Shown: positions 11,185 to 45,194, numbered from the stretch's first letter. The stretch: DNA of 51,660 nucleotides from an uncultured Candidatus Saccharibacteria bacterium (GCA_964368565.1 CAYJAC010000001.1:30571-82230), one strand, 5' to 3'. Notes: generated by a model not told the origin, from the letters alone. Numbers and translations are program-made.

Positions 11185-11634
11185 TTATAAGCTTATTTCC
11201 CGCGTCTGTTCATCTATGAATTTAAAAGAAATCGTGCGGATGTTTTGAGACGGTTTTGGCATCTTCTCCCCCATCTTCTCCGGCCATTCCACTAAAATAA
11301 TATTCGTCGGTTCGGCAATCAGCTTGTCCCAACCAATCTGTGTCGCCTGAGCAGGTGTTTCTAGACGATAGGCATCTATATGTATAAGCTTTCTCCAACC
11401 AAGCATGAGCATCCGTGCATCAGCGACCTCATAGCTTTTCATAATCACAAACGTCGGACTCGTCACCTCATCTGAATTCACGCCAAACTCAGCGGCAAAG
11501 GCCTTCGTAAACGTGGTCTTGCCCGAGCCCAAATCCCCAGACAATGCCAAAATCATGGCTGTCTTCCCCACCTTTAGCTTTTCGGCTATACCTCTAGCAA
11601 TTTTCGCCGTATCCTCAATCGATTTCGATATCAT
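11185..11634 (-). CDS. tsaE: tRNA t6A biosynthesis ATPase TsaE (YjeE)
   Basis: 149 aa with Walker A 'GDLGSGKTTFTKAFA', 'SPTFVIM' and 'HIDAYRL'. Confidence 0.85.
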   Translation of the reverse strand: MISKSIEDTAKIARGIAEKLKVGKTAMILALSGDLGSGKTTFTKAFAAEFGVNSDEVTSPTFVIMKSYEVADARMLMLGWRKLIHIDAYRLETPAQATQIGWDKLIAEPTNIILVEWPEKMGEKMPKPSQNIRTISFKFIDEQTREISL

Positions 11635-11642
11635 AGGATTAC

Positions 11643-11796
11643 TTTAGCATGAGTATTGAGCCCCGCCTGCACAAATGTGCCTCGGAAGAGACTCTCGGAG
11701 CGCGACGGCGCGAGAGTGAAGGAATTCGCTTCAAGCGAATTACCTGTGCTCTTCCGAGGCACATTTGTGCGGGTGGGGTCTTTTATCCATGCTAAA
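11643..11796. repeat. GC-rich nested palindromic element (copy b) filling the tsaE/pilB divergent intergenic region
   Basis: A 30-bp stem spans 11661-11690 / 11749-11778, perfect except for two positions that are G-U pairs on the plus strand. An outer 9-bp stem (tttagcatg / catgctaaa) surrounds it. Two inner hairpins are present (actctcg...cgagagt; aattcgc...gcgaatt). Confidence 0.6.
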
Positions 11797-11804
11797 ATAA
11801 TCCC

Positions 11805-13478
11805 ATGACAGTCACCTTCGACGAAGACCGACAAGACAAGCGCCTCGACGAGTTCAAGCGCCGCGAGCAAGAAGACGTAGCCCAGATCATGGCTTCGCGT
11901 TATGAGCTTGAATACGTAGACCTCGGTCCCGTGCCAATCAACATGGATGCTCTACGCCTCGTAACCGAAGCGGAGGCACGCGAATCCCTCATAGCCCCCT
12001 TCTCTCTCGTTGGACACCGCGCAAAAATCGCCGTCGTCTCTCCAGTAAACGAAAAGACAACCGCAATTATCGAGACCCTCAAAAGCAAAGGTGTTGAAGT
12101 AACACTCGTTGTTGCTTCTCTCACCAGCCTAGAAAAAGTCTGGGGACGCTATGCTGACCTCACATTCGCAACCGTCACAAAGGCGGGCGCCCTCGACATC
12201 TCAAGCGAGGACATAAAAGAGTTCGTCGGCAAAATCCACACCATCGACGACGTCCGCGCACAGATGACAGAAATTCTCAAACTCAAAAAAGGTTTTCGTA
12301 TATCAAAAATCCTTGAAATTGTCCTTTCAGGCGCCCTCGCCACAAAGGCATCCGATGTTCACATTGAACCCGAAGAAGCCTATACCCGTCTGCGTTTCCG
12401 ACTCGATGGTGTGCTCACAGACATCATGCAGTTTGACCTCGAAACGTATCACCTTATCCTCTCTCGCATAAAATTACTCTCAGGACTCAAACTCAATGTA
12501 AAATCCGAGGCTCAAGACGGCCGCTTTAGCGTAAAAGTTGGCGAGGATATGATCGAAATCCGAACCTCAATGTTGCCTGGTGCATACAGCGAATCGATCG
12601 TGCTTCGACTCCTTAATCCAAAATCCATTCAGGTTCCCCTTGAGGACCTGGGTATTCCAAAGAAACTCCTTTCTATCCTTCTTGAACAAGTGGCAAAACC
12701 AAACGGTATGATTCTCACCACTGGACCGACCGGTTCTGGAAAGACGACAACCTTGTATGCATTCTTGCGCAAGATTCATACACCAGACGTAAAAATCATC
12801 ACCATCGAAGATCCTATTGAATACCACCTCCCTGGCATCACCCAGACACAAACCAATACGGACAAGGGTTACACATTCGCCCTCGGTCTTCGCTCTGCCC
12901 TACGCCAAGACCCTGACATAATCATGGTGGGAGAAATCCGTGATAATGAGACAGCGCAGATTGCCATCGATTCGGCGCTCACCGGACACCTTGTTTTCTC
13001 GACTCTGCACACGAATTCTGCTGCCGGTTCCTTCCCTCGTCTCATCGAGCTCGGCGTAAACCCACGTGTTATGTCTTCGGCAATCAACATTACACTGGCT
13101 CAGCGCCTCGTCCGAAAGCTCTGCTCAGAATGTAAGAAAGAGGAGGTGCTCACCGGCAAGGAGAAAGAAACTGTCGACAAAGTGCTCGCCACAATCGTTG
13201 ATCAAACAGAAATACCAACAAAGCGTGATAGTGCTTTCAAACCTGTCGGATGCCCTGCTTGTAACATGACTGGCTACAAGGGACGTCTTGGTATATACGA
13301 AGGTATAATTACCACTGAAGAAATCGACAAGGCGATTGAATTTTCAACCAACGAAAAAGATGTCGCTAAAATAGCAGCCGCGCAAGGAATCTTAACAATG
13401 ACACAGGACGGCGTCCTAAAAACCCTCGCCGGCATCACAACCTTAGACGAACTGGGTCGCGTCATAGATCTTCCTTAA
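11805..13478 (+). CDS. pilB: Type IV pilus / type II secretion assembly ATPase (PilB/GspE family)
   Basis: 557 aa with Walker A 'GPTGSGKTTT', 'MVGEIRD', 'TGHLVFSTLHTN' and a C-terminal Cys cluster 'CSEC...CPAC'. Confidence 0.9.
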   Translation: MTVTFDEDRQDKRLDEFKRREQEDVAQIMASRYELEYVDLGPVPINMDALRLVTEAEARESLIAPFSLVGHRAKIAVVSPVNEKTTAIIETLKSKGVEVTLVVASLTSLEKVWGRYADLTFATVTKAGALDISSEDIKEFVGKIHTIDDVRAQMTEILKLKKGFRISKILEIVLSGALATKASDVHIEPEEAYTRLRFRLDGVLTDIMQFDLETYHLILSRIKLLSGLKLNVKSEAQDGRFSVKVGEDMIEIRTSMLPGAYSESIVLRLLNPKSIQVPLEDLGIPKKLLSILLEQVAKPNGMILTTGPTGSGKTTTLYAFLRKIHTPDVKIITIEDPIEYHLPGITQTQTNTDKGYTFALGLRSALRQDPDIIMVGEIRDNETAQIAIDSALTGHLVFSTLHTNSAAGSFPRLIELGVNPRVMSSAINITLAQRLVRKLCSECKKEEVLTGKEKETVDKVLATIVDQTEIPTKRDSAFKPVGCPACNMTGYKGRLGIYEGIITTEEIDKAIEFSTNEKDVAKIAAAQGILTMTQDGVLKTLAGITTLDELGRVIDLP

Positions 13479-14035: not shown

Positions 14036-14202
14036 TTTCCAGAATATAAATCTCTAAGCAATACTTAAAGATGTGCATCCAAAGTTAAGCAGAGTTCTTA
14101 GGATAGACCCAGTAGGAACACCGGAGTGTAACCAGAACGTCCCGAGAGTATCAGCTAGTAAACCGTAAAGGTTTAATTGCTTAGAGATTTATAGGCTGGA
14201 AA
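14036..14202. other. 167-nt element closed by a 27-bp imperfect inverted repeat (candidate structured sRNA or MITE)
   Basis: Left arm 14036-14062 tttccagaatataaatctctaagcaat; right arm 14176-14202 attgcttagagatttataggctggaaa. 25 of 27 positions are complementary. It is intergenic, upstream of ruvB. Confidence 0.4.
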
Positions 14203-18055: not shown

Positions 18056-20602
18056 ATGACTAAAAAAAGCACCCTCTCAAAGCTCAAACACCACCTCAAA
18101 GCACACACAAAGCGCGACATTTTTGTAATAATCGCGTCAGCGCTCTTTATTGTGATTGGAATTATGATCTTGTGGGTCTCGTCATTCCGACTACCCGACC
18201 TTTCATCGTTCGAGCAGCGAAAGGTGTCTGAGTCCACAAAAATATTCGATCGAACAGGTAAAGTACTCCTCTACGACCTTCATGACAATGTAAAAAGGAC
18301 GATCGTGCCATCGGACAAAATCTCCCCTTTCCTAAAAAAGGCCACTGTCGCCATTGAGGATGCGGATTTTTATGAGCACGGCGGTATCAGAATTTCTTCT
18401 ATTATCCGTGCAGTCCTCGCAAACGTTATTTCAGGTGAGTATTCCCAGGGCGGTTCAACCATCACTCAACAAGTCGTCAAAAACACACTCCTTACAACCG
18501 ATAAACGTATCTCACGCAAACTTAAAGAGTGGGTTTTGGCAATCAAGCTCGATAAAACTATGACAAAGGACGCCATTCTCACGAGCTATCTAAACGAAAA
18601 CCCTTACGGAGGAAACATATATGGAGTCGAGGAGGCGGCAAAGCAATTTTACGGAAAGACGGCTATGGACCTTACCTTGGCGGAATCTGCGTATTTAGCC
18701 GCCATCCCTCAAGCAAGCACCTATTTCTCTCCTTATGGAAAAAATATCGATAAATTAGAGGCCCGCAAGAACCTTGTGCTGAAAAAAATGCTTGAGTCCG
18801 GAACCACAACACAAGAAGAGTACGATGTGGCCACAAAGGAAAAAGTAGTATTTCAGCAACAAGGCAAGTTTGGTATCAAGGCACCTCATTTCGTATTCTT
18901 TGTAAAAGAATACTTAGAAAATATCCTTGGTGTTGGCACCCTCGACGAAGGTGGCTACAAAGTTATCACCACTCTTGATGCCAATCTTCAGGAAAAGGCC
19001 GAGGATCTCATAAAGGAAAAGGCTATTGAGAATTTAGAAAAATACAACGCATCAAATCTTGCCCTCATCGCATTGGATCCTCAAAACGGCGACATTGTAT
19101 CGATGGTTGGCTCGCGCGACTATTTCGATACGGTAATCGATGGTCAGTTCAATGTTGCAATTTCCCCAAACCGCCAACCTGGCTCGACAATGAAGCCAAT
19201 TATCTACGCGCAGGCATTTACGAAAGGATACACACCTGAAACCGTTGTCTTTGATCTCCCTACTTCTTTTTCGACCACCTGTGACCTTGAAGGAAAGCCC
19301 CTCGACCCTGCCGGCGATCCAAAACAATGCTACATGCCAGGAAACTACGACGATTTGTTCCGTGGTCCGATGACACTACGTGACGCACTTGCCCAGTCGA
19401 TCAACATTCCCGCCATCAAAACCCTCTATCTTGCTGGCCTAAAGGATTCTCTTAACTTGGCAAAAAGCATGGGCATCACCAGTCTTACAAATGCCGATCA
19501 GTATGGTCTTACCCTTGTACTTGGAGGTGGTGAGGTTTCTCTTTTGGAAATGGCGAGCGCATACGGAACATTCGCCAAAGACGGCATTCATGTCGCACAC
19601 AGACCAGTTCTTCAGCTCTATGATTCAAAAGGCTCTGAAATAAAACTACCTACACAGAAGCAGAATCAGGTTATGCCAGCCGAAGTGGCACGCAATATCT
19701 CAAGTATTCTGAGCGACAATGTGGCGCGAACCCCTGGATACGGAACAAACTCTGTCCTTTACTTCCCTACGCGTGATGTGGCAGCAAAAACCGGTACTAC
19801 CAACGACTCGCGTGACGCATGGACTGTCGGTTATACACCAAACCTCGTCGTTGGTGTGTGGGCTGGTAACAACGACAACAGCCCAATGGTTAAAAAGGTA
19901 GCCGGGCAAATCGTGGCACCTATATGGGCTTCATTCATGAAGCAGGGATTGGCAGCTGTTCCCGATCAGCGCTTTACTCCTCCTACTCCTGCAGATCCCG
20001 CCACACTCAAACCTGTCATGAAAGGTATTTGGCAAGGAGGAAAAACATACACTATCGACACAGTCTCTGGAAAACTCGCAACGGAATTCACACCCTTTGA
20101 AACACGCAAAGAAGTACCCGTTACCTCGGTGCACTCCATTCTCTACTGGGTGAACAAGGCCGACCCATTAGGTGCTGCTCCGACGAATCCCTCGAGTGAC
20201 TCTCAATTCGAGCGCTGGGAGGCTCCTGTGCGCAAATGGGCGGTGGAAAATGGATACGCAGACCAGAGCGATAGCAGTATCCCAACCCAGTTCGATAACA
20301 TCCATACAGAAAACAATTCATTTAAGGCGCAGGTACAGTCAGTTGATGCTGGACGCATTTACAACATAGATGACACCGTATCGATAACAGTCGGCTCAAC
20401 TGGAAAATACTCCCTCTCAAAGGCCACCCTATATGTAAATGATGTTTTTATTGAAAGGATAGAATCAGGACCTTTCACATTTAGATTCACCCCAAAGGAC
20501 ATATCTGGTATTAAGGAAAGGAACACTGTCCGCATAGTTGCCGTCGATAGCGTCTTTAATCAAACAGAGGCTCGTGGCGAATTCTCGGTGAAACTAGACT
20601 AA
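18056..20602 (+). CDS. Class A penicillin-binding protein (glycosyltransferase + transpeptidase)
   Basis: 848 aa with an N-terminal TM segment. GT51 motifs 'EDADFYEHGG' and 'GGSTITQQ'; transpeptidase motifs 'STMKP' and 'KTGTT'. Confidence 0.95.
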   Translation: MTKKSTLSKLKHHLKAHTKRDIFVIIASALFIVIGIMILWVSSFRLPDLSSFEQRKVSESTKIFDRTGKVLLYDLHDNVKRTIVPSDKISPFLKKATVAIEDADFYEHGGIRISSIIRAVLANVISGEYSQGGSTITQQVVKNTLLTTDKRISRKLKEWVLAIKLDKTMTKDAILTSYLNENPYGGNIYGVEEAAKQFYGKTAMDLTLAESAYLAAIPQASTYFSPYGKNIDKLEARKNLVLKKMLESGTTTQEEYDVATKEKVVFQQQGKFGIKAPHFVFFVKEYLENILGVGTLDEGGYKVITTLDANLQEKAEDLIKEKAIENLEKYNASNLALIALDPQNGDIVSMVGSRDYFDTVIDGQFNVAISPNRQPGSTMKPIIYAQAFTKGYTPETVVFDLPTSFSTTCDLEGKPLDPAGDPKQCYMPGNYDDLFRGPMTLRDALAQSINIPAIKTLYLAGLKDSLNLAKSMGITSLTNADQYGLTLVLGGGEVSLLEMASAYGTFAKDGIHVAHRPVLQLYDSKGSEIKLPTQKQNQVMPAEVARNISSILSDNVARTPGYGTNSVLYFPTRDVAAKTGTTNDSRDAWTVGYTPNLVVGVWAGNNDNSPMVKKVAGQIVAPIWASFMKQGLAAVPDQRFTPPTPADPATLKPVMKGIWQGGKTYTIDTVSGKLATEFTPFETRKEVPVTSVHSILYWVNKADPLGAAPTNPSSDSQFERWEAPVRKWAVENGYADQSDSSIPTQFDNIHTENNSFKAQVQSVDAGRIYNIDDTVSITVGSTGKYSLSKATLYVNDVFIERIESGPFTFRFTPKDISGIKERNTVRIVAVDSVFNQTEARGEFSVKLD

Positions 20603-20605
20603 AGT

Positions 20606-20715
20606 AAAAACCTCACACAGCATTATCGGAGCACGCGTCATGGGGCCCTGACCCATGCGCTCACTCTCGGCCCGTCGGCCTGCGAGAGTCTCCTCTAAAG
20701 CTGTGTGAGGTTTTT
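20606..20715. repeat. Terminator-embedded GC-rich structured element (copy c)
   Basis: The outer stem aaaaacctcacacagc / gctgtgtgaggttttt is flanked by A/T runs. The conserved core blocks 20624-20669 and 20679-20698 are shared with copy d. Confidence 0.75.
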
Positions 20716-20965
20716 ATTTAATATCAGTAATCCTGGTTGTTGGTAGTTTCTCCTTAATCAAAGCCAGTATCCGGGCCTTTCGAGTGAATACCAGTGATTT
20801 AACTAAAGGAGACCCCTTCAAATAGATTATATTTTTACGTATGTCGTATCTAACTGTTCCTGTCCCACAGGTTTCGCTCAATGCAGCCAATATGGCGTCA
20901 TTTTCAACAAGAGTATCCCCTTCTATCTTAGTGAACTTCTTAAAATAATCAGAGATGTTGAACAC
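20714..20965 (-). CDS. Small DUF721-like protein downstream of dnaN (possible DciA-type)
   Basis: 83 aa. It sits after dnaN, and the C-terminal pattern 'IIYLKGSPLVKSLVFTRKARILALIKEKL' resembles DUF721. The assignment is weak. Confidence 0.35.
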   Translation of the reverse strand: MFNISDYFKKFTKIEGDTLVENDAILAALSETCGTGTVRYDIRKNIIYLKGSPLVKSLVFTRKARILALIKEKLPTTRITDIK

Positions 20966-20978
20966 AAAGAGTAATCAA

Positions 20979-22079
20979 CTAACGATTCATCGGCATCACA
21001 AGGTATGTGAATGACTTATCAGAAACACCCTTCATAACAAGGGGTCTGTTTGCGCCACTTATCGACAAAGCAATAGAATCCGCATCGATGGATTGAAAAC
21101 TGTCTGCGATGTACTTGTGGTTAAAATTAATCTCAACATCCTGCCCTGTCACACTCGAATCAATAGCGTTAACATATTCTCCAACATCACTGTTTTTTGT
21201 TGAGATAGTAAATGTTTTCTTTGAAGGGAATGCTTTTACGTTTACCTGATTGAATTTATCCGAAAAAACATGTGAGGTTTTGAGGGAGTCCACAAAATCC
21301 TGCTTCAAAACGATAACCTCGGTCACAAATGTCTTTGGAATGATCTGACGATAATCCGGGAAAGTTGCATCAATTACACGAGACATAAGATACACATCCT
21401 TTGTCTCAAAAGCGATTTGATTCTTATCGAAAAGCACCCTAATGTCATCCCCTACGTTCTCAAGAGTTCGAATAATATCGTTAACATTCTTTGCTGGAAT
21501 GATAACTGACGGGAAATCGAGACTATCTTTGATTTTTACTCTTTTTTCCGCGAGTCGGAATGAATCTGTTGATACGAAAACAAGCTCAGACTCCTCTTTA
21601 AACACATACACACTAGCTAATTCAGGTTTTACGGTCGATTGAGAAGCGCTGTAAACGACCGACTTGAAGCCTTTAACCAAAAGTTTTGGACTGATATCAA
21701 CAGTCTTCTGGGTTTCAAGCTTTGGAATAGACGGAAAATCATCAGGAGAAAACGTTTTGATTAATGTTGTATTCGCAGAGGTCGAAATAACCACGTTTCC
21801 ATCCTTTGATTCAAGGGTAATATTTTTCTCCTTTGGAAGTCCCGCAAGAAGCGAGATCATAACACCTCCATGGAGGGCAATTTCGCCCTCTACGTCCACC
21901 TTAGCTGCAATCTTGACCTCTATGCCGCAATCAAGGTTTGTCGCGCGTATGATGAGGGTATTGCCCTCTGCCTTTATATTCACACATGAAAGAATAGGAA
22001 GAGAAAGATTCTTTCCTGTAAGGCGGTCTGCCTTTGTGATTCCTTCTATTAGTTTTTCTTTAATGCATTCTATTTTCAT
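20979..22079 (-). CDS. dnaN: DNA polymerase III beta sliding clamp
   Basis: 366 aa. Typical N-terminus 'MKIECIKEKLIEGI...LPIL' and C-terminus 'YLVMPMNR'. It is downstream of dnaA. Confidence 0.95.
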   Translation of the reverse strand: MKIECIKEKLIEGITKADRLTGKNLSLPILSCVNIKAEGNTLIIRATNLDCGIEVKIAAKVDVEGEIALHGGVMISLLAGLPKEKNITLESKDGNVVISTSANTTLIKTFSPDDFPSIPKLETQKTVDISPKLLVKGFKSVVYSASQSTVKPELASVYVFKEESELVFVSTDSFRLAEKRVKIKDSLDFPSVIIPAKNVNDIIRTLENVGDDIRVLFDKNQIAFETKDVYLMSRVIDATFPDYRQIIPKTFVTEVIVLKQDFVDSLKTSHVFSDKFNQVNVKAFPSKKTFTISTKNSDVGEYVNAIDSSVTGQDVEINFNHKYIADSFQSIDADSIALSISGANRPLVMKGVSDKSFTYLVMPMNR

Positions 22080-22086
22080 ATCCCCA

Positions 22087-22291
22087 GTATATATTCTTAT
22101 ATTCTATTAAGAAGACTATTATTACTACTAGCGCTGTGTATATGTGTATAACTTTTTCTATCCTTACAGGTCAGCCTTATTTGGATTTCCAATCTTGCTA
22201 TTGTGTGGATATCTTCGGGGACAAAATGATAACTTTTTCTGTTTTCCACAAACCCTTGTTTTTATCCCCAGTTCTTCACTCACTATCCCCA
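22087..22291. other. Candidate oriC segment: AT-rich stretch plus a DnaA-box cluster in the dnaA-dnaN spacer
   Basis: AT-rich region 22087-22135. Boxes: TGTGGATAT 22204-22212 (8/9, reverse), TTTTCCACA 22242-22250 (8/9), TTATCCCCA 22262-22270 (8/9), CTATCCCCA 22283-22291 (7/9). Confidence 0.6.
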
Positions 22292-22304
22292 CCTGATTCA
22301 CACG

Positions 22305-23651
22305 CTATACAATCAGCGAGCGAATGTGATTTACCTCTTGGAGTAGTATTTGATTCGACTTTATATCTTCCTTAATCTTTTCGCAAGAATGAATAACTGT
22401 GGTGTGATCGCGGCCACCAAGTTTTTCGCCGATCGATGGATATGAAATATTCATATCCTCGCGAAGGATGTACATAATAACCTGGCGTGGCTTAACCACT
22501 TCCTTCTTTCGGGTCTTTTCGTATATGCTGCCTTCTTCAATGTTATAGAAGTCCGAAACGATCTTCACTACTTCCTTAACCGAAACAGTTTTCTTTGGCT
22601 TTGCGTTGTTTTTAATAAGATTCTTTACCTCAAGTATATTGATCTCCCTTCCCTTGTGCTGCGTTTGCATGGCAATAGAGTTAACAATACCTTCGAGCTC
22701 GCGGATATTTCCTTCTACCGATTGCGCCAGGAACTCAATAAGGTCCTGTGGAAGGGTTATGTTCTGTCGTTCAAGCTTTGCTTTCAGGATCATGAGCCTT
22801 GATTCATAGTCTGGAGCAGAAACATCAACAATCATACCCGCGCCAAAGCGTGATTTAAGGCGGTCATCGACTTCTGCCAGGTGGTTTGGATGCTGGTCAG
22901 ACGAACAGATGAGCTGCCTGTTGTTTTCTTTCATTGCATTAAAGAGGTGAAAGAATTCTTCTGCAATCTTTTCCTTGCTTGAGAAGAACTGAACGTCATC
23001 CATGATCAAAACGTCGTATTTTCGATACTTTTCCTTAAACTGATTCGCTTTTCCGAGCTGAAGCGAGTTCATGTAATCGACGGCAAACTTTTCAGAGGTC
23101 ACATAGAATACCTTTTTTGCGGGATGATTGGCCTTTATGTGGTTTCCTACCGCCTGCATGAGGTGTGTTTTGCCGCGGCCGGTGCCACCATAGAGATAGA
23201 GGGGGTTATAGGCAATACCGGGGTTCTTAATTACCGCCTGGGCTGCTGCATGAGCCAAATCGTTGAAGGGGCCAACAACATACGCCTCAAACGTGTACTT
23301 TGGGTTGAGGTTGTCGTCCTTGCTGATGTATATATCCTGCAAAGGCAGCTCATATGGGGGCTGTACCTGCTTTCGGGGCTCTTCAGGTGCCTCTTTTCGT
23401 TCAGGAGACTTAGATATGACGTATTCGAGAGACCTTACATCGTTCCCATAATCACGTAAGTACTTAAGGATTGTTTTGTGGAACTTACCTGAAAGCCACT
23501 CTTTGGCGAATATACTAGGAACGGATAGGTATATCACCCCATCTTCTTGTTTATGAATATGAGTGTCCTTGAACCACATTCGGAATGTGGCTATAGATAC
23601 TTCGAGCTCTACCCGTGTCAGCACATTCTCCCAGATTTTTTTGTTATCCAT
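22305..23651 (-). CDS. dnaA: Chromosomal replication initiator DnaA
   Basis: 448 aa starting at 'MDNKKIWENV'. Walker A 'GGTGRGKTHL', 'VLIMDDVQF', and a C-terminal DNA-binding domain 'GGRDHTTVIHSCEKI'. Confidence 0.95.
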   Translation of the reverse strand: MDNKKIWENVLTRVELEVSIATFRMWFKDTHIHKQEDGVIYLSVPSIFAKEWLSGKFHKTILKYLRDYGNDVRSLEYVISKSPERKEAPEEPRKQVQPPYELPLQDIYISKDDNLNPKYTFEAYVVGPFNDLAHAAAQAVIKNPGIAYNPLYLYGGTGRGKTHLMQAVGNHIKANHPAKKVFYVTSEKFAVDYMNSLQLGKANQFKEKYRKYDVLIMDDVQFFSSKEKIAEEFFHLFNAMKENNRQLICSSDQHPNHLAEVDDRLKSRFGAGMIVDVSAPDYESRLMILKAKLERQNITLPQDLIEFLAQSVEGNIRELEGIVNSIAMQTQHKGREINILEVKNLIKNNAKPKKTVSVKEVVKIVSDFYNIEEGSIYEKTRKKEVVKPRQVIMYILREDMNISYPSIGEKLGGRDHTTVIHSCEKIKEDIKSNQILLQEVNHIRSLIV

Positions 23652-23766
23652 AAAAAGTATTATTTCCGAAGTAACGTAAGTATAATGGCTTATAAGAATA
23701 GTAGTACTTGAAACCAAGGCTTAAATGTGTTAATAATATGTGAACAAGTTGTTAATAACTGATTTT

Positions 23767-23904
23767 ATGGCAATCGTATACAAAACAAAGAACAGAAAGC
23801 GAGCTCGAGCTCACGGATTCCTCGCGCGAAAATCTACCCCAACGGGCCGCGCAGTCATCAAGCGCCGACGAAATAAGGGTCGCAAGAAGCTTCTTAAAGT
23901 CTAA
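23767..23904 (+). CDS. rpmH: 50S ribosomal protein L34
   Basis: A 45-aa ORF absent from the ORF track: [45 protein letters not shown]. Confidence 0.9.
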
Positions 23905-24242
23905 TGCTCAAAAAGGCTCTAAGGCTTACAGTGAGCGATATAGAGAGCCTCTCGGCAGGAAAAAGCGTCTTTGGGACGCTTATTTCTATGAGGTTTATAC
24001 CAGCTGTGAAAACAAAGGTGTCGGTAACAGTTTCCAAGAAGGTAGCCAAGACCGCAGTCGACAGGAACCGTATCCGACGCCGAACCTATGCAGCGGTTGA
24101 AAAAGTGTTGGGAAATATGAAAAATCCGGTCTACGCCATGCTTATGCCAAAAAAGGAATTCCTTTCAGCCCCTTTTGAGACCGTATGTGCCGAAGTCGAA
24201 TCTATCTTTAAAAAGGCAGGCTTGATAGTATTGAGTCTCTAA
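23904..24242 (+). CDS. rnpA: RNase P protein component
   Basis: 112 aa. Its ATG overlaps the rpmH stop (taATG). It has a basic 'AVDRNRIRRR' motif and the conserved rpmH-rnpA-yidC order. Confidence 0.85.
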   Translation: MLKKALRLTVSDIESLSAGKSVFGTLISMRFIPAVKTKVSVTVSKKVAKTAVDRNRIRRRTYAAVEKVLGNMKNPVYAMLMPKKEFLSAPFETVCAEVESIFKKAGLIVLSL

Positions 24243-24251
24243 TCAACATAT

Positions 24252-24992
24252 ATGTATACAACGTACGTTTTTAATCCTCTCTATAACGGTCTCATCCTCC
24301 TTGCGGACTGGCTTCCCTTTCTCGACGCAGGTCTCCTGATTGTTCTCTTTACCCTTATTGTTAAGCTTGTTCTTTTCCCTATATCCCGAAAGGCAGTCCG
24401 AACACAGGCTATGATGAAGCAGGTCGAGCCCGAATTACGTGCCATTAAGGAGCGATACAAGGACGATAGACAGCAGCAGGCCCTCGAAACCATGAAGTTG
24501 TATAAGGAAAAACAAGTCAATCCTTTTTCAAGCATTTTCCTTCTCTTGATTCAGCTTCCTATTATCTTTGCTCTCTACCAGATTTTTTATTCAACAGGTT
24601 TTTCTTCAATAAACGCTGACATTCTCTACTCATTCGTCAGTGTTCCTGGTCAGATCAGCACATCATTCCTTGGTTTGCTTGATGTTTCTCAGAAAAGCGT
24701 CATTCTTGCCATTCTTGCTGCGGTTTCTCAGTATTACCAAATAAAGCTCTCTGTTCCGCCAGTGGCTCCGCGTGTTGAAGGTGCAAAGCCAAGCTTTCAG
24801 GACGACCTCGCCCGCAATATGCAAGTTCAGATGAAGTATGTCTTCCCTATTATGATCCTTTTCATCTCATACCACGCTGCCGCGGCTCTTGCGATCTACT
24901 GGATCACATCAAACCTCTTCATGATTGGGCAGGAACTCTATATACGAAAGCAGATGAAGCGAGAGGCTGAGATGAAGTTGCGGGTAATTTAG
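24252..24992 (+). CDS. yidC: Membrane protein insertase YidC (short form)
   Basis: 246 aa and multi-pass. 'KQVEPELRAIKERYKDDRQQQALETMKLYKEKQVNPF' is the typical YidC/Oxa1 amphipathic helix region. Confidence 0.9.
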   Translation: MYTTYVFNPLYNGLILLADWLPFLDAGLLIVLFTLIVKLVLFPISRKAVRTQAMMKQVEPELRAIKERYKDDRQQQALETMKLYKEKQVNPFSSIFLLLIQLPIIFALYQIFYSTGFSSINADILYSFVSVPGQISTSFLGLLDVSQKSVILAILAAVSQYYQIKLSVPPVAPRVEGAKPSFQDDLARNMQVQMKYVFPIMILFISYHAAAALAIYWITSNLFMIGQELYIRKQMKREAEMKLRVI

Positions 24993-25123
24993 TCAGCAAA
25001 AAAGTCCTTATCGGAGCACGCGTCATGGGACCCTGACCCATGCGCTCACTCTCGCGTTTTCGGTTGTGCCACTGGCACAACCTCACCCTGCGAGAGTCTC
25101 CTCTAAGGACTTTTTTGCTGACT
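24991..25123. repeat. Terminator-embedded GC-rich structured element (copy d)
   Basis: Outer 20-bp stem agtcagcaaaaaagtcctta / taaggacttttttgctgact. The core blocks 25009-25054 and 25087-25106 match copy c (1 difference in 46 nt; 20/20). Confidence 0.75.
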
Positions 25124-25126
25124 AAA

Positions 25127-26362
25127 TTACTCTGTTAGATTGTAGCGCCACACCGTCATGTCTTTCTTGTTGGTAAATATAATAACGTTCTCGTTTTGAT
25201 CAAGCGAAGGCTTTATCATGTCCATCGTTAGTCCAATGGTAGAGTCGGGGTTAAGGAGCTCTTCTGTTTCGCCGCTTACAGCGTCTATTTTCCATAGGAC
25301 ATCGTCAAAACCAACCTTCCCTTTATACCAGTCATCTGGGTAGGATGCACTGCGAGGTGATTGAGGAATTGCGCAGTACACCGTCGCGCGGTCCTTAGTG
25401 CTCCAGACACATTTATTGGCGAGAGTCGAAACACTGAGTCTTTGTGATGTTCCAGTTTTTACATCAAAGATTGATGTTGCTAGGGTGTTTTGGTTACTAC
25501 CAGAGAAAAGTACCAAGGTTCCGTCAGTGTTTGCTACGGTTTCAAGGCCATATACCCCACTAAGCGTCTTTGTATAGTCACCATTCGCCGGATTCATCAG
25601 ATATGAACTACCGCCTGTCGCATTGCTTGGTTTTGAGGAGATTACAATTGCCTTTGGAGAGGTCCAGTTGGTTGTCCACTCACCAAATGAAGAGTTGAAG
25701 ATTGCCTCTTTATTACTACCGTCCATGTTTGCCATTATTCCTTGGGCATTAGTGTCTCTCCAGACTAGATAGAATATTTTATTAGCGTTTACCGCTATGT
25801 TTCTGATGCCGTCTGGCAGGAAGAGCCCTTCGAGTGCCTGTTCTGGCCTTTGTGGCATTGCGATTTTCGCGTAGAAGGTACGGATAACATCACTGTCCTC
25901 TTTAAAGTATCGGATGAGGAGACGGGTGGCGTTCTGAGTAAAAATGGCTTCGTAAACCTTTGGAATGGTAATTGTTGATATTTTGGTTACCACCGATTTT
26001 TCGCTGTCAGTTTCGTATATATGACCAGTGGCGCGTTCTATGTAGCGAATCACTGTTGACGAAGCGGTTGATGATGCGACAGCTCCAGCAGTGGGAACGA
26101 ATGATATCTGTCTGAATCGAGGAAGTCGCACTTCCCCGCTGCCGCTCAGGTCTATCTCGCTCTGCGTGCTGGTTCCACTTGTCGTGCTTGTTCCTGTTGT
26201 GTTTGTTGTACCGCCCGGACCGAAAGGAAAAAGGTCTGAATCGGGAGTGGTTCCAGGATTGGTATTTGAAGGGCCCGCCGATTTGTTATACAAATACCAC
26301 CCAAGAGCTGCAAAGATTGCAATAAGGATAATTATAAGTAATGTAAATGCTTTTTTTGACAT
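25127..26362 (-). CDS. Membrane-anchored hypothetical protein (Thr/Ser/Gly linker, beta-rich ectodomain); last gene of the T4SS-like operon
   Basis: 411 aa with N-terminal TM 'LLIIILIAIFAALGWYL'. It starts 1 nt after the upstream gene's stop. Confidence 0.5.
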   Translation of the reverse strand: MSKKAFTLLIIILIAIFAALGWYLYNKSAGPSNTNPGTTPDSDLFPFGPGGTTNTTGTSTTSGTSTQSEIDLSGSGEVRLPRFRQISFVPTAGAVASSTASSTVIRYIERATGHIYETDSEKSVVTKISTITIPKVYEAIFTQNATRLLIRYFKEDSDVIRTFYAKIAMPQRPEQALEGLFLPDGIRNIAVNANKIFYLVWRDTNAQGIMANMDGSNKEAIFNSSFGEWTTNWTSPKAIVISSKPSNATGGSSYLMNPANGDYTKTLSGVYGLETVANTDGTLVLFSGSNQNTLATSIFDVKTGTSQRLSVSTLANKCVWSTKDRATVYCAIPQSPRSASYPDDWYKGKVGFDDVLWKIDAVSGETEELLNPDSTIGLTMDMIKPSLDQNENVIIFTNKKDMTVWRYNLTE

Positions 26363-45133: not shown

Positions 45134-45194
45134 AAATAGAAAAGACTCTTACGCGTCCTTCATCGACCTGGACGCGTAAGAGTCTTTTCTATTT
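45134..45194. terminator. Exceptionally long perfect hairpin (25-bp stem) 3 nt after the dksA-like stop
   Basis: aaatagaaaagactcttacgcgtcc (45134-45158), loop ttcatcgacct, ggacgcgtaagagtcttttctattt (45170-45194). Confidence 0.65.

Follow-up and report, generated by a model that had tools for sequence, protein, structure and literature searches.

Copies c and d of a Saccharibacteria genome: very probable members of a phylum-wide family of selfish palindromic elements

A stretch of 51,660 nucleotides from an uncultured Candidatus Saccharibacteria bacterium (GCA_964368565.1, CAYJAC010000001.1:30571-82230; the window, throughout its length) contains two GC-rich modules, copies c and d, that are very probably small, palindromic, non-autonomous repeats of one family, a form of selfish DNA found phylum-wide in Patescibacteria. 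The conserved unit is a Y-shaped three-way-junction core of ~72 nt. Alignments of filled and empty sites against the closest available relative indicate that hairpin tips are the element's preferred landing sites and that its arms grow by inverted copying of native DNA. Palindromic selfish repeats are a known kind of element; the insertion signature of this family is unusual, and no published description of it was found.

How palindromic elements of the Rickettsia type move has reportedly been an open question since 2000. With sites that are naturally filled or empty, and with single sites taken by different families, the thousands of Patescibacteria genomes that have the element make the question of mobility approachable by population metagenomics and by experiment. 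In these streamlined genomes the element shapes gene ends, the mirror-image spacers of promoters, and surface loops of the essential enzymes UvrD, RecG, PolA, Tgt, and MetK. It is also a trap for annotation, since it displaces start and stop codons in gene predictions and lengthens proteins by low-complexity peptides, and its strong covariation makes it easy to mistake for a novel structured RNA or riboswitch. Some Patescibacteria are now genetically tractable (PMC10633639).

In this study, both cores were searched by short-word BLAST against the whole 797-kb assembly of the window's own genome (G000), which yielded a dozen further copies. Twelve copies formed a first alignment (A1), the source of covariance model R1; a second (A2) held 47 distinct copies, and a third (A3), whose members were picked by the pattern of the P3 arm, is uninformative on variation in that arm. 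The set of relatives comprised 61 genomes including G000, of which 21 belong to its genus. One genome per species was scanned with an exact pattern, viral contigs were scanned with the same pattern, and reading frames were surveyed over 127 non-redundant copies. The closest relative in the comparison, G015 (95% complete, 5 contigs), was compared with G000 over its whole genome, every copy being placed by synteny. Rfam 15 was searched with the whole window at gathering thresholds and with the region 20400-25400 at E<=10.

Copies c and d and the folded core

Copy c occupies the hairpin at 20602-20719 (plus strand), in which an A-run, a locus-specific stem, the module, the returning stem, and a T-run follow one another; it was delimited both as an inverted repeat and by folding (-64 kcal/mol, z -9.2). 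A repeat finder pairs 20602-20631 with 20690-20719 (30 nt, 87% complementary) as its outer inverted repeat, and the flanking genes are convergent, PBP1A (18056-20602, plus) facing an open reading frame (ORF) of 83 aa (20714-20965, minus). The hairpin of copy d, at 24984-25130 (plus strand), was delimited in the same two ways. Its outer repeat, 24984-25016/25098-25130, is 33 nt long and 94% complementary, its fold reaches -86 kcal/mol (z -14.9), and it lies between convergent yidC (24252-24992, plus) and a 411-aa ORF (25127-26362, minus), with both stop codons falling within the hairpin arms. Folded as either strand, both copies give a long stem with a three-way-junction cap, with z from -8 to -15 and 0 of 200 shuffles as stable. 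The two loci thus have the layout of bidirectional intrinsic terminators: A-run, stable stem, T-run, and convergent genes. A simple terminator scan called neither, because their "loops" exceed 8 nt.

Within these hairpins the covariance model matches a 72-nt core in copy c at 20625-20696 (plus strand; 89.9 bits, E 5e-20) and a 95-nt core in copy d at 25010-25104 (plus strand; 66.6 bits). In copy c, GGAG at 20628-20631 pairs with CTCC at 20690-20693 to form helix P1; the junction strand CAC leads to hairpin P2 (20635-20660), and the strand TC leads to P3 (20663-20689), in which a CGTC tetraloop caps the 4-bp helix P3b. Copy d has the same P1, P2, and lower P3 helix (P3a) except for one base in the P2 loop, the one difference between the copies outside P3b, across the 4.4 kb that separate them. 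In place of P3b it has a longer arm, with TTTTCGG before and CCTCAC after a 9-bp hairpin; this arm defines a "d-type" subfamily.

Most of what a preliminary description had reported of these modules is borne out. Two modules of shared architecture are found at both places by reading of the region and by the repeat finder. The conserved blocks, given as 46 nt with one difference and 20 nt identical, were recovered as a 47-nt block with 1 mismatch (20623-20669 and 25008-25054) and an identical 20-nt block (20679-20698 and 25087-25106). The ggag/ctcc pairs, the catggg hairpin, and the actctcg/cgagagt stem all formed in the folding of either strand, and the 9-bp ggttgtgcc/ggcacaacc hairpin of copy d also forms. 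Outer stems are present, although not with the lengths of 15 and 20 bp first given, which the inverted repeats of 30 and 33 nt exceed because the module's own GGAG/CTCC ends are counted in. Among the proteins encoded around the copies, Pfam confirms PBP1A (Transgly plus Transpeptidase), DnaN, DnaA, and YidC, so the naming of PBP1A and yidC stands; the name "DUF721-like" does not, as the 83-aa ORF has no Pfam match at E<=0.001.

Two copies had been counted in the window, and both are real, but a third had gone unlinked to them. Its core lies at 11684-11755 on the minus strand (covariance model match G000:C1:42254-42325, 88.2 bits), inside a hairpin with 60-nt arms at 11631-11808 (minus strand; an inverted repeat with a fold of -116 kcal/mol). 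This palindrome fills the entire spacer between two divergent genes. Because the start codons of both (CAT 11632-11634 and ATG 11805-11807) lie within the arm ends, the two genes have mirror-image upstream regions.

Across copies the core consists of P1 (GGAG/CTCC), the variable hairpin P2, and the conserved arm P3 (CACTCTCG..CCGTCG..CTSCGAGAG), which ends either in the invariant CGTC tetraloop or in the longer alternative arm of the d-type. The consensus fold of A1 has 25 pairs, with compensatory changes at 16. A covariation check of the kind proposed for the module gave the same picture on A2, in which 93.2% of pair cells are standard and 22 of the 25 pairs change on both sides; 0 of 500 shuffles reached the observed pairing, and slid controls gave 34-54%. 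P1, P2, and the 4-bp P3b covary freely, while the lower P3 helix, the junction strands, and the CGTC tetraloop are conserved in sequence. The long P3b of the d-type recurs in G017 and G002 as TTT(T/A)CGG, a 9-bp hairpin that itself covaries, and CCTCAC. The G015 ortholog of copy c (C1:19052) carries a compensatory change in P2.

The ACTCTCG/CGAGAGT helix is a special case. All nine ungapped variants (9/9) break its long register yet preserve a shifted helix of 3 bp, at which one position shows four pair types and another three. To judge from these variants, the conserved helix may pair in the shifted 3-bp register, leaving conserved unpaired bases at the junction.

Distribution, orientation, and gene context

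The covariance model gave 21 matches in G000 at E<=1, of which 16 fall at E<1e-10 and about 5 are weak. Among the relatives, matches occur in 26 of the 61 genomes (G000 included) and in 17 of the 21 in the same genus. Elsewhere in the order the distribution is patchy: one genome of another family holds 23 copies and another 15, and most have none. G015 carries 13 copies, G017 carries 25, and G030 carries 15. The exact-pattern scan found at least 113 loci, with all labelled records assigned to Patescibacteria (Kaiser-, Nomura-, Yonath-, and Taylorbacteria, Paceibacterota, Minisyncoccia, Parcubacteria, and some Saccharibacteria) and some records saying just "bacterium". With so many copies in the genome and its relatives, a local duplication as the source of c and d, raised at the outset as a possible refutation of mobility, is not borne out. 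The G000 copies are clustered, 13 of 19 having a neighbour within 10 kb (simulation P ~0.005), and this clustering, together with the near-identity of c and d, fits local copying or gene conversion.

The impression that the module falls outside the described RNA families is in line with the Rfam searches, which returned no match to the modules at gathering thresholds (two tRNAs were the only matches in the whole window) or at E<=10 in 20400-25400. Literature searches yielded no description of such elements in the Candidate Phyla Radiation, and two recent preprints that map intergenic sequences do not mention them. Two further candidates were set aside: a viral origin, with 0 matches to the exact pattern in viral contigs, and a DNA uptake sequence, for which ~20 copies per genome are far too few.

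In an RNA under selection on one strand, G-U pairs are normally frequent and A-C appositions scarce. Among 3276 pair cells we counted 79 G-U/U-G and 57 A-C/C-A, which gives no signal by which to assign a strand. One-sided changes, counted separately, amount to 19 cells versus 291 two-sided. Neither was there a bias of orientation relative to the direction of tandem genes (29 vs 31) or to GC skew (8:11 in G000, 4:6 in G015). Copies lie between convergent genes in 24 cases, tandem genes in 60, and divergent genes in 9. Their arms are mostly T-rich on the left and A-rich on the right (42 vs 14), the reverse of terminator polarity, and in G000 the gene ends with the element number ~20 among several hundred.

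Long open frames host 24 of the 127 non-redundant copies, in frame and free of stops, in two reading phases, one per orientation. For seven host frames examined with Pfam, the gene was confirmed in six, as UvrD/PcrA, RecG, PolA (two genomes), Tgt, and MetK; both PolA hosts are genomes of the window's own genus. One Nomurabacteria UvrD holds two copies, and the UvrD and RecG orthologs of G000 are without the inserted segments. MetK of G062 has a clean insert of 111 nt, or 37 codons, that five same-genus orthologs do not have. The element can be present in a genome inside genes only, as in G062, with its single copy, and G061, with two. These in-frame copies are presumably translated into extra peptide loops.

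With pairing that is nearly purely Watson-Crick, random orientation, and copies between genes of every arrangement and in frame within genes, the family behaves as selfish DNA and not primarily as a strand-specific RNA. The idea that the module is mobile or selfish is supported, with many copies, a patchy distribution, lineage-specific gains, and in-frame copies in uvrD, recG, polA, tgt, and metK in its favour. The alternative offered with it, a functional RNA module of 3' ends, is unsupported as the main role of the family, given the absence of orientation bias, the nearly all Watson-Crick pairing, and the copies that lie within genes or at divergent promoters. At c and d the module may still contribute to the terminator in a secondary way.

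Filled sites, empty sites, and the origin of the arms

It had been proposed that relatives be searched for terminators without the module, and such terminators were found at both sites. At the copy d site, 3' of yidC, the four closest relatives (G015, G021, G006, and G003) have plain terminators of A-tract, GC stem, and T-tract with no module, and the stem of G006 (AGCAAAAAACCGGCC...) is similar to the outer stem of G000. G020 has a related module at this position. At the copy c site, 3' of PBP1A, the module is present only in G000 and G015, and G021, G006, and G003 have plain bidirectional terminators. The copies of G000 and G015 at this site have the module ends TTATC...TC(T/C)AA in common and unrelated inner stems. 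A search for the empty copy d site in metagenomes gave 0 matches to the joined-flank pattern and chance matches only for the 20-mer at the yidC end.

The yidC terminator tip has been occupied by other structures as well. Further branched GC-rich modules, unlike the c/d family and unlike the second family described below, are found there in other species of the genus, G017 (L066) and G019 (L056), and in G008 the arms of a plain hairpin extend into the end of the yidC coding sequence.

By synteny, five or six copies are common to G000 and G015, and six or seven occur in G000 only. C2:49252 corresponds in G015 to a small hairpin, TACCCGCC-TCGGCATTTTGCCTT-GGCGGGTA. The G000 module is placed at the end of this hairpin's loop, and the G015 loop sequence stands on both sides of the module, inverted. 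At C4:33515, G015 has a 9-bp hairpin whose loop in G000 holds the module with inner arms of 23 bp. At C21:13267 the left arm holds the conserved 3' end of the upstream gene, and the right arm is its inverted copy, not found in G015. An inverted duplication of the native flank is also seen at C10:16557. This locus, C21:1246, and the G015 locus C1:205493 have empty sites without a hairpin, with inserts of ~150-180 nt. The suggestions that the element targets terminator hairpins and that it creates them are both supported. The plain terminators of relatives at c and d and the G015 hairpins at C2:49252 and C4:33515 speak for targeting; C2:49252 and C21:13267, where one arm is native in G015 and the other is an inverted copy not in G015, speak for creation.

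A single site can also be taken by different families. C10:25365 and the G015 locus C2:131872 are sites at which G000 and G015 carry different module families, and at one of the two both modules lie inside the same outer arms, which are native sequence and its inverted copy. The second family is represented in the window itself at 416-560, where an unrelated, branched, GC-rich module of 105 nt (436-540) is enclosed by a perfect 20-bp stem. Its copies, as found by BLAST, number at least 7 in G000 and at least 4 in G015, and at two orthologous sites one genome has this second family and the other the c/d family.

Several observations weigh against the reading of the family as selfish DNA whose core lands at tips and whose arms are copied on the spot. 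The arms are not always made on site, as the metK insert brought an arm of ~20 nt along with its core, and some sites have inner arms (12-23 bp) that are not native sequence and match no other copy compared. Arms are common to the copies of G030 and partly to those of G047. The native and the copied side have no fixed polarity relative to the module (2:1 over three sites). No insertion event was seen at strain level; the closest genome is ~87% identical to G000 in YidC, which blurs the junctions and allowed no target-site rule to be read. The copy at C17:15468, with its arms and immediate surroundings (~100-130 nt), is almost identical in G000 and G015 while the flanking genes differ, which suggests either constraint or recent exchange. 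The covariation of P3a in its shifted register looks like that of a specific recognition fold, and it would fit a dedicated enzyme or an RNA role better than the passive maintenance of a palindrome; it is the chief argument for a specific recognition partner. Finally, the enzyme families tested as mobilisers number two, Y1 transposase and reverse transcriptase.

The near-identical locus corresponds to G000 C17:15391-15644 and G015 C2:124560-124760, around which the coding DNA differs at many sites. At the G015 ortholog of G000 C21:9460 (G015 C4:28775-28900), an extra partial second core (GGCTCAATTCCAGAGCGTCGGGCTCCGAGAGCCCC) stands beside the first as a nested or tandem fragment.

As for a donor of the arms, no arm of the 16 G000 copies matches any other sequence compared, and what those copies have in common is the core with ~5 nt on each side. 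At metK, C10:16557, and G015 C1:205493 no direct duplication of the target is apparent, though the genomes compared are too diverged for base-exact junctions.

Mechanism, alternatives, and related elements

The explanation that we favour is one of selfish palindromic DNA. A copy of the core would be made at a new place, by preference at the tip of a hairpin already there, which at c and d is a bidirectional intrinsic terminator; native flanking DNA would then be copied in inverted orientation, so that each copy comes to cap its own long, locus-specific hairpin. Copies in genes would survive only in the two stop-free phases, as extra in-frame codons. At c and d the element most likely rides in, and is tolerated by, the bidirectional terminators, and the module probably lets the surrounding A-tract, stem, and T-tract still terminate.

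How the copying proceeds is a more tentative matter. Granted the main explanation, there is a somewhat less than even chance that the mechanism is a transposase-free process driven by replication or repair. The stable GC-rich cap might stall or break replication at the hairpin tip, template switching or repair of the broken tip might use the core at another locus as template, and quasipalindrome correction might then perfect and extend the arms. A more specific proposal, which we consider possible but doubtful, is that the Y-shaped core is a novel type of mobile DNA that can do without its own enzyme. The host's machinery for replication or repair would recognise its fold at hairpin tips that have stalled or broken, the core being copied in from another locus and the neighbouring DNA then copied backwards into a private hairpin. 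The conserved junction bases, the covarying 3-bp helix, and the invariant CGTC loop would make up the recognised fold. If so, the smallest bacterial genomes would have their terminators, promoters, and protein loops constantly reshaped by the core.

Neither of the two enzyme families tested nor any linked gene tracks the element. Y1_Tnp (PF01797) was not found in G000, G015, G017, G047, or G020, which have 13-25 copies each, and is present in 16 of 35 element-free relatives, so a Y1/RAYT transposase (RAYT, a tyrosine transposase associated with repetitive extragenic palindromic, or REP, sequences) was rejected as the mobiliser. Reverse transcriptase was likewise rejected: it occurs in 14 of 26 element-bearing versus 9 of 35 element-free genomes, a comparison confounded by relatedness, and its domain RVT_1 was not found in G015, G017, G030, G002, G004, or G005. 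Within 2.5 kb of the copies no protein family recurs in G000 or G015.

Three other explanations were considered. That the family is a functional RNA module of 3' ends, its fold selected in transcripts for bidirectional termination, exonuclease protection, or protein binding and its spread due to recruitment by many operons, would account for the position of c and d exactly at the intrinsic terminator sites of relatives, with A-run and T-run kept, and for the strong covariation, the conserved unpaired bases and tetraloop, and the copy that is nearly invariant between G000 and G015. Even Watson-Crick-only pairing would be expected if the fold were needed on both transcripts of a convergent pair. 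We nevertheless regard it as unlikely, since orientation relative to tandem genes is random (29 vs 31), divergent genes flank 9 copies, in-frame positions inside genes account for 24 of 127, and the T-rich/A-rich polarity of the arms (42 vs 14) is opposite to that of terminators. Moreover, the element marks ~20 of several hundred gene ends, shows no copies in 4 of the 21 genomes of the genus, and is replaced by plain terminators at the same sites in close relatives.

A conventional non-autonomous transposon, of the miniature inverted-repeat transposable element (MITE) type or the REP/REPIN type and moved in trans by an enzyme (a RAYT-like HUH nuclease, another transposase, or a homing nuclease) that recognises P3 with its CGTC loop, is quite improbable. 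An invariant loop on a variable stem, above a conserved lower helix, is what the nick sites of HUH enzymes such as Rep and Y1 usually look like, and the P3a helix covaries next to conserved unpaired bases. CGTC-tagged REPs, including Rickettsia RPE-4 and RPE-6, occur at gene ends and inside the repair genes uvrD and polA (PMC3733652). Against this stand the distribution of Y1_Tnp, not found in the most element-rich genomes and common in element-free ones; the lack of a recurring gene family beside the copies of G000 or G015; and arms that are locus-specific instead of conserved terminal repeats. Nor is a direct target duplication visible at the metK, C10:16557, and G015 C1:205493 junctions, CGTC is here a tetraloop and not an unpaired terminal head, and the one copy of G062 and the two of G061 lie inside genes. 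Least probable by far, and barely to be entertained, is a small self-cleaving ribozyme or a retroelement-borne RNA of the retrozyme or short interspersed nuclear element (SINE) kind, copied from RNA by a resident reverse transcriptase such as the diversity-generating retroelement (DGR) enzyme of the window. A three-way junction with conserved junction bases is the architecture of hammerhead and twister-sister ribozymes, a reverse transcriptase gene lies in the window 16 kb away, and the counts of 14 of 26 and 9 of 35 genomes, confounded as they are by relatedness, lean the same way. The junction strands (CAC; TC or TCA; none or AGT) are unlike the hammerhead core, however, and even at E<=10 Rfam gave no match, whether to its ribozyme models (hammerhead, twister, twister-sister, hatchet, and pistol included) or to any other, so a ribozyme was rejected; RVT_1 is not found in G015, G017, or G030, with 13, 25, and 15 copies, neither orientation of the element prevails, and there is no preference for G-U pairs.

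Selfish palindromic DNA of this kind has its nearest analogue in the Rickettsia palindromic elements (RPEs), reportedly described by Ogata et al. in 2000 and grouped as RPE-1 to RPE-10. Both are short dispersed hairpin repeats of reduced genomes, have no transposase of their own, occur between genes and in frame in housekeeping genes with more than one phase or orientation readable, and leave mobilisation an open question. The present element is an analogue and not a member, because every labelled host belongs to Patescibacteria; the host phylum is another and the core sequence probably unrelated. Moreover, the Patescibacteria core is a branched three-way junction with covarying arms and not a simple palindrome, its copies cap locus-specific arms that are partly inverted native copies, and it prefers hairpin tips, at which different families can take the same place.

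RPE-4 and RPE-6 are treated together with REPs by Di Nocera et al. 2013 (PMC3733652), who find intragenic REPs enriched in uvrD, polA, and other repair genes. Like the GTAG- or CGTC-tagged REP elements and dimers in that account, the present copies lie mostly just downstream of genes, convergent or tandem, and often touch stop codons; some are intragenic, notably in repair genes, here in frame in UvrD, RecG, and PolA. Like the CGTC-tagged REPs, they have no known transposase and a conserved CGTC tetranucleotide. REPs, however, are single imperfect hairpins of 20-40 bp with an unpaired tetranucleotide head at the terminus (PMC3733652), whereas CGTC here is the loop of an inner stem, the covarying 4-bp P3b, inside a three-way junction of 72 nt; the family also shows no link to RAYT, and copies number tens per genome, not hundreds. 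Unlike a MITE, the family has no terminal inverted repeats common to its copies, as the G000 arms match no other copy.

The mobile GC clusters of yeast mitochondria, to go by one account (PMC4478555), are similar as GC-rich hairpin mini-elements of compact, AT-richer genomes; change there is concentrated in loops with stems kept, units merge and shuffle, and the mechanism is described as unsettled. They differ in being organellar and in their putative target-site duplications, of which none are seen here, and inverted copying of flanks is not known to be reported for them. The growth of the arms resembles quasipalindrome correction by intramolecular template switching, work on which is said to come from Ripley and from the Lovett laboratory, in that a hairpin is perfected and grown outward by copying one arm, which matches C2:49252 and C21:13267. 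Quasipalindrome correction is a mutational process and not an element, and it leaves the arrival of the core at new sites unexplained. Bidirectional Rho-independent terminators have in common with c and d the layout of A-run, stem, GC-rich structure, stem, and T-run; they differ from the family in that its apical part is a branched module of 76-99 nt and not a loop of 3-8 nt, and that most members have no T-run polarity. Hairpin-forming elements are known from other mitochondria too, in fungi and sponges, among them the double-hairpin elements of Allomyces.

The window holds a few further structures. A sub-threshold match to the Rfam model AsdA (23115-23192, plus strand; 45.1 bits against a gathering threshold of 52, E 4e-7), an antisense RNA of dnaA mRNA, falls within dnaA, on its other strand, and is probably due to the conserved dnaA coding sequence. 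At 14036-14202 a 27-nt inverted repeat, 93% complementary, surrounds an AT-rich interior of 113 nt, unlike the GC-rich modules. Perfect plain hairpins occur at 45134-45194 (25-nt arms, 11-nt loop) and at 2183-2226 (21-nt arms, 2-nt loop), and long perfect palindromes free of any module are also common in G000.

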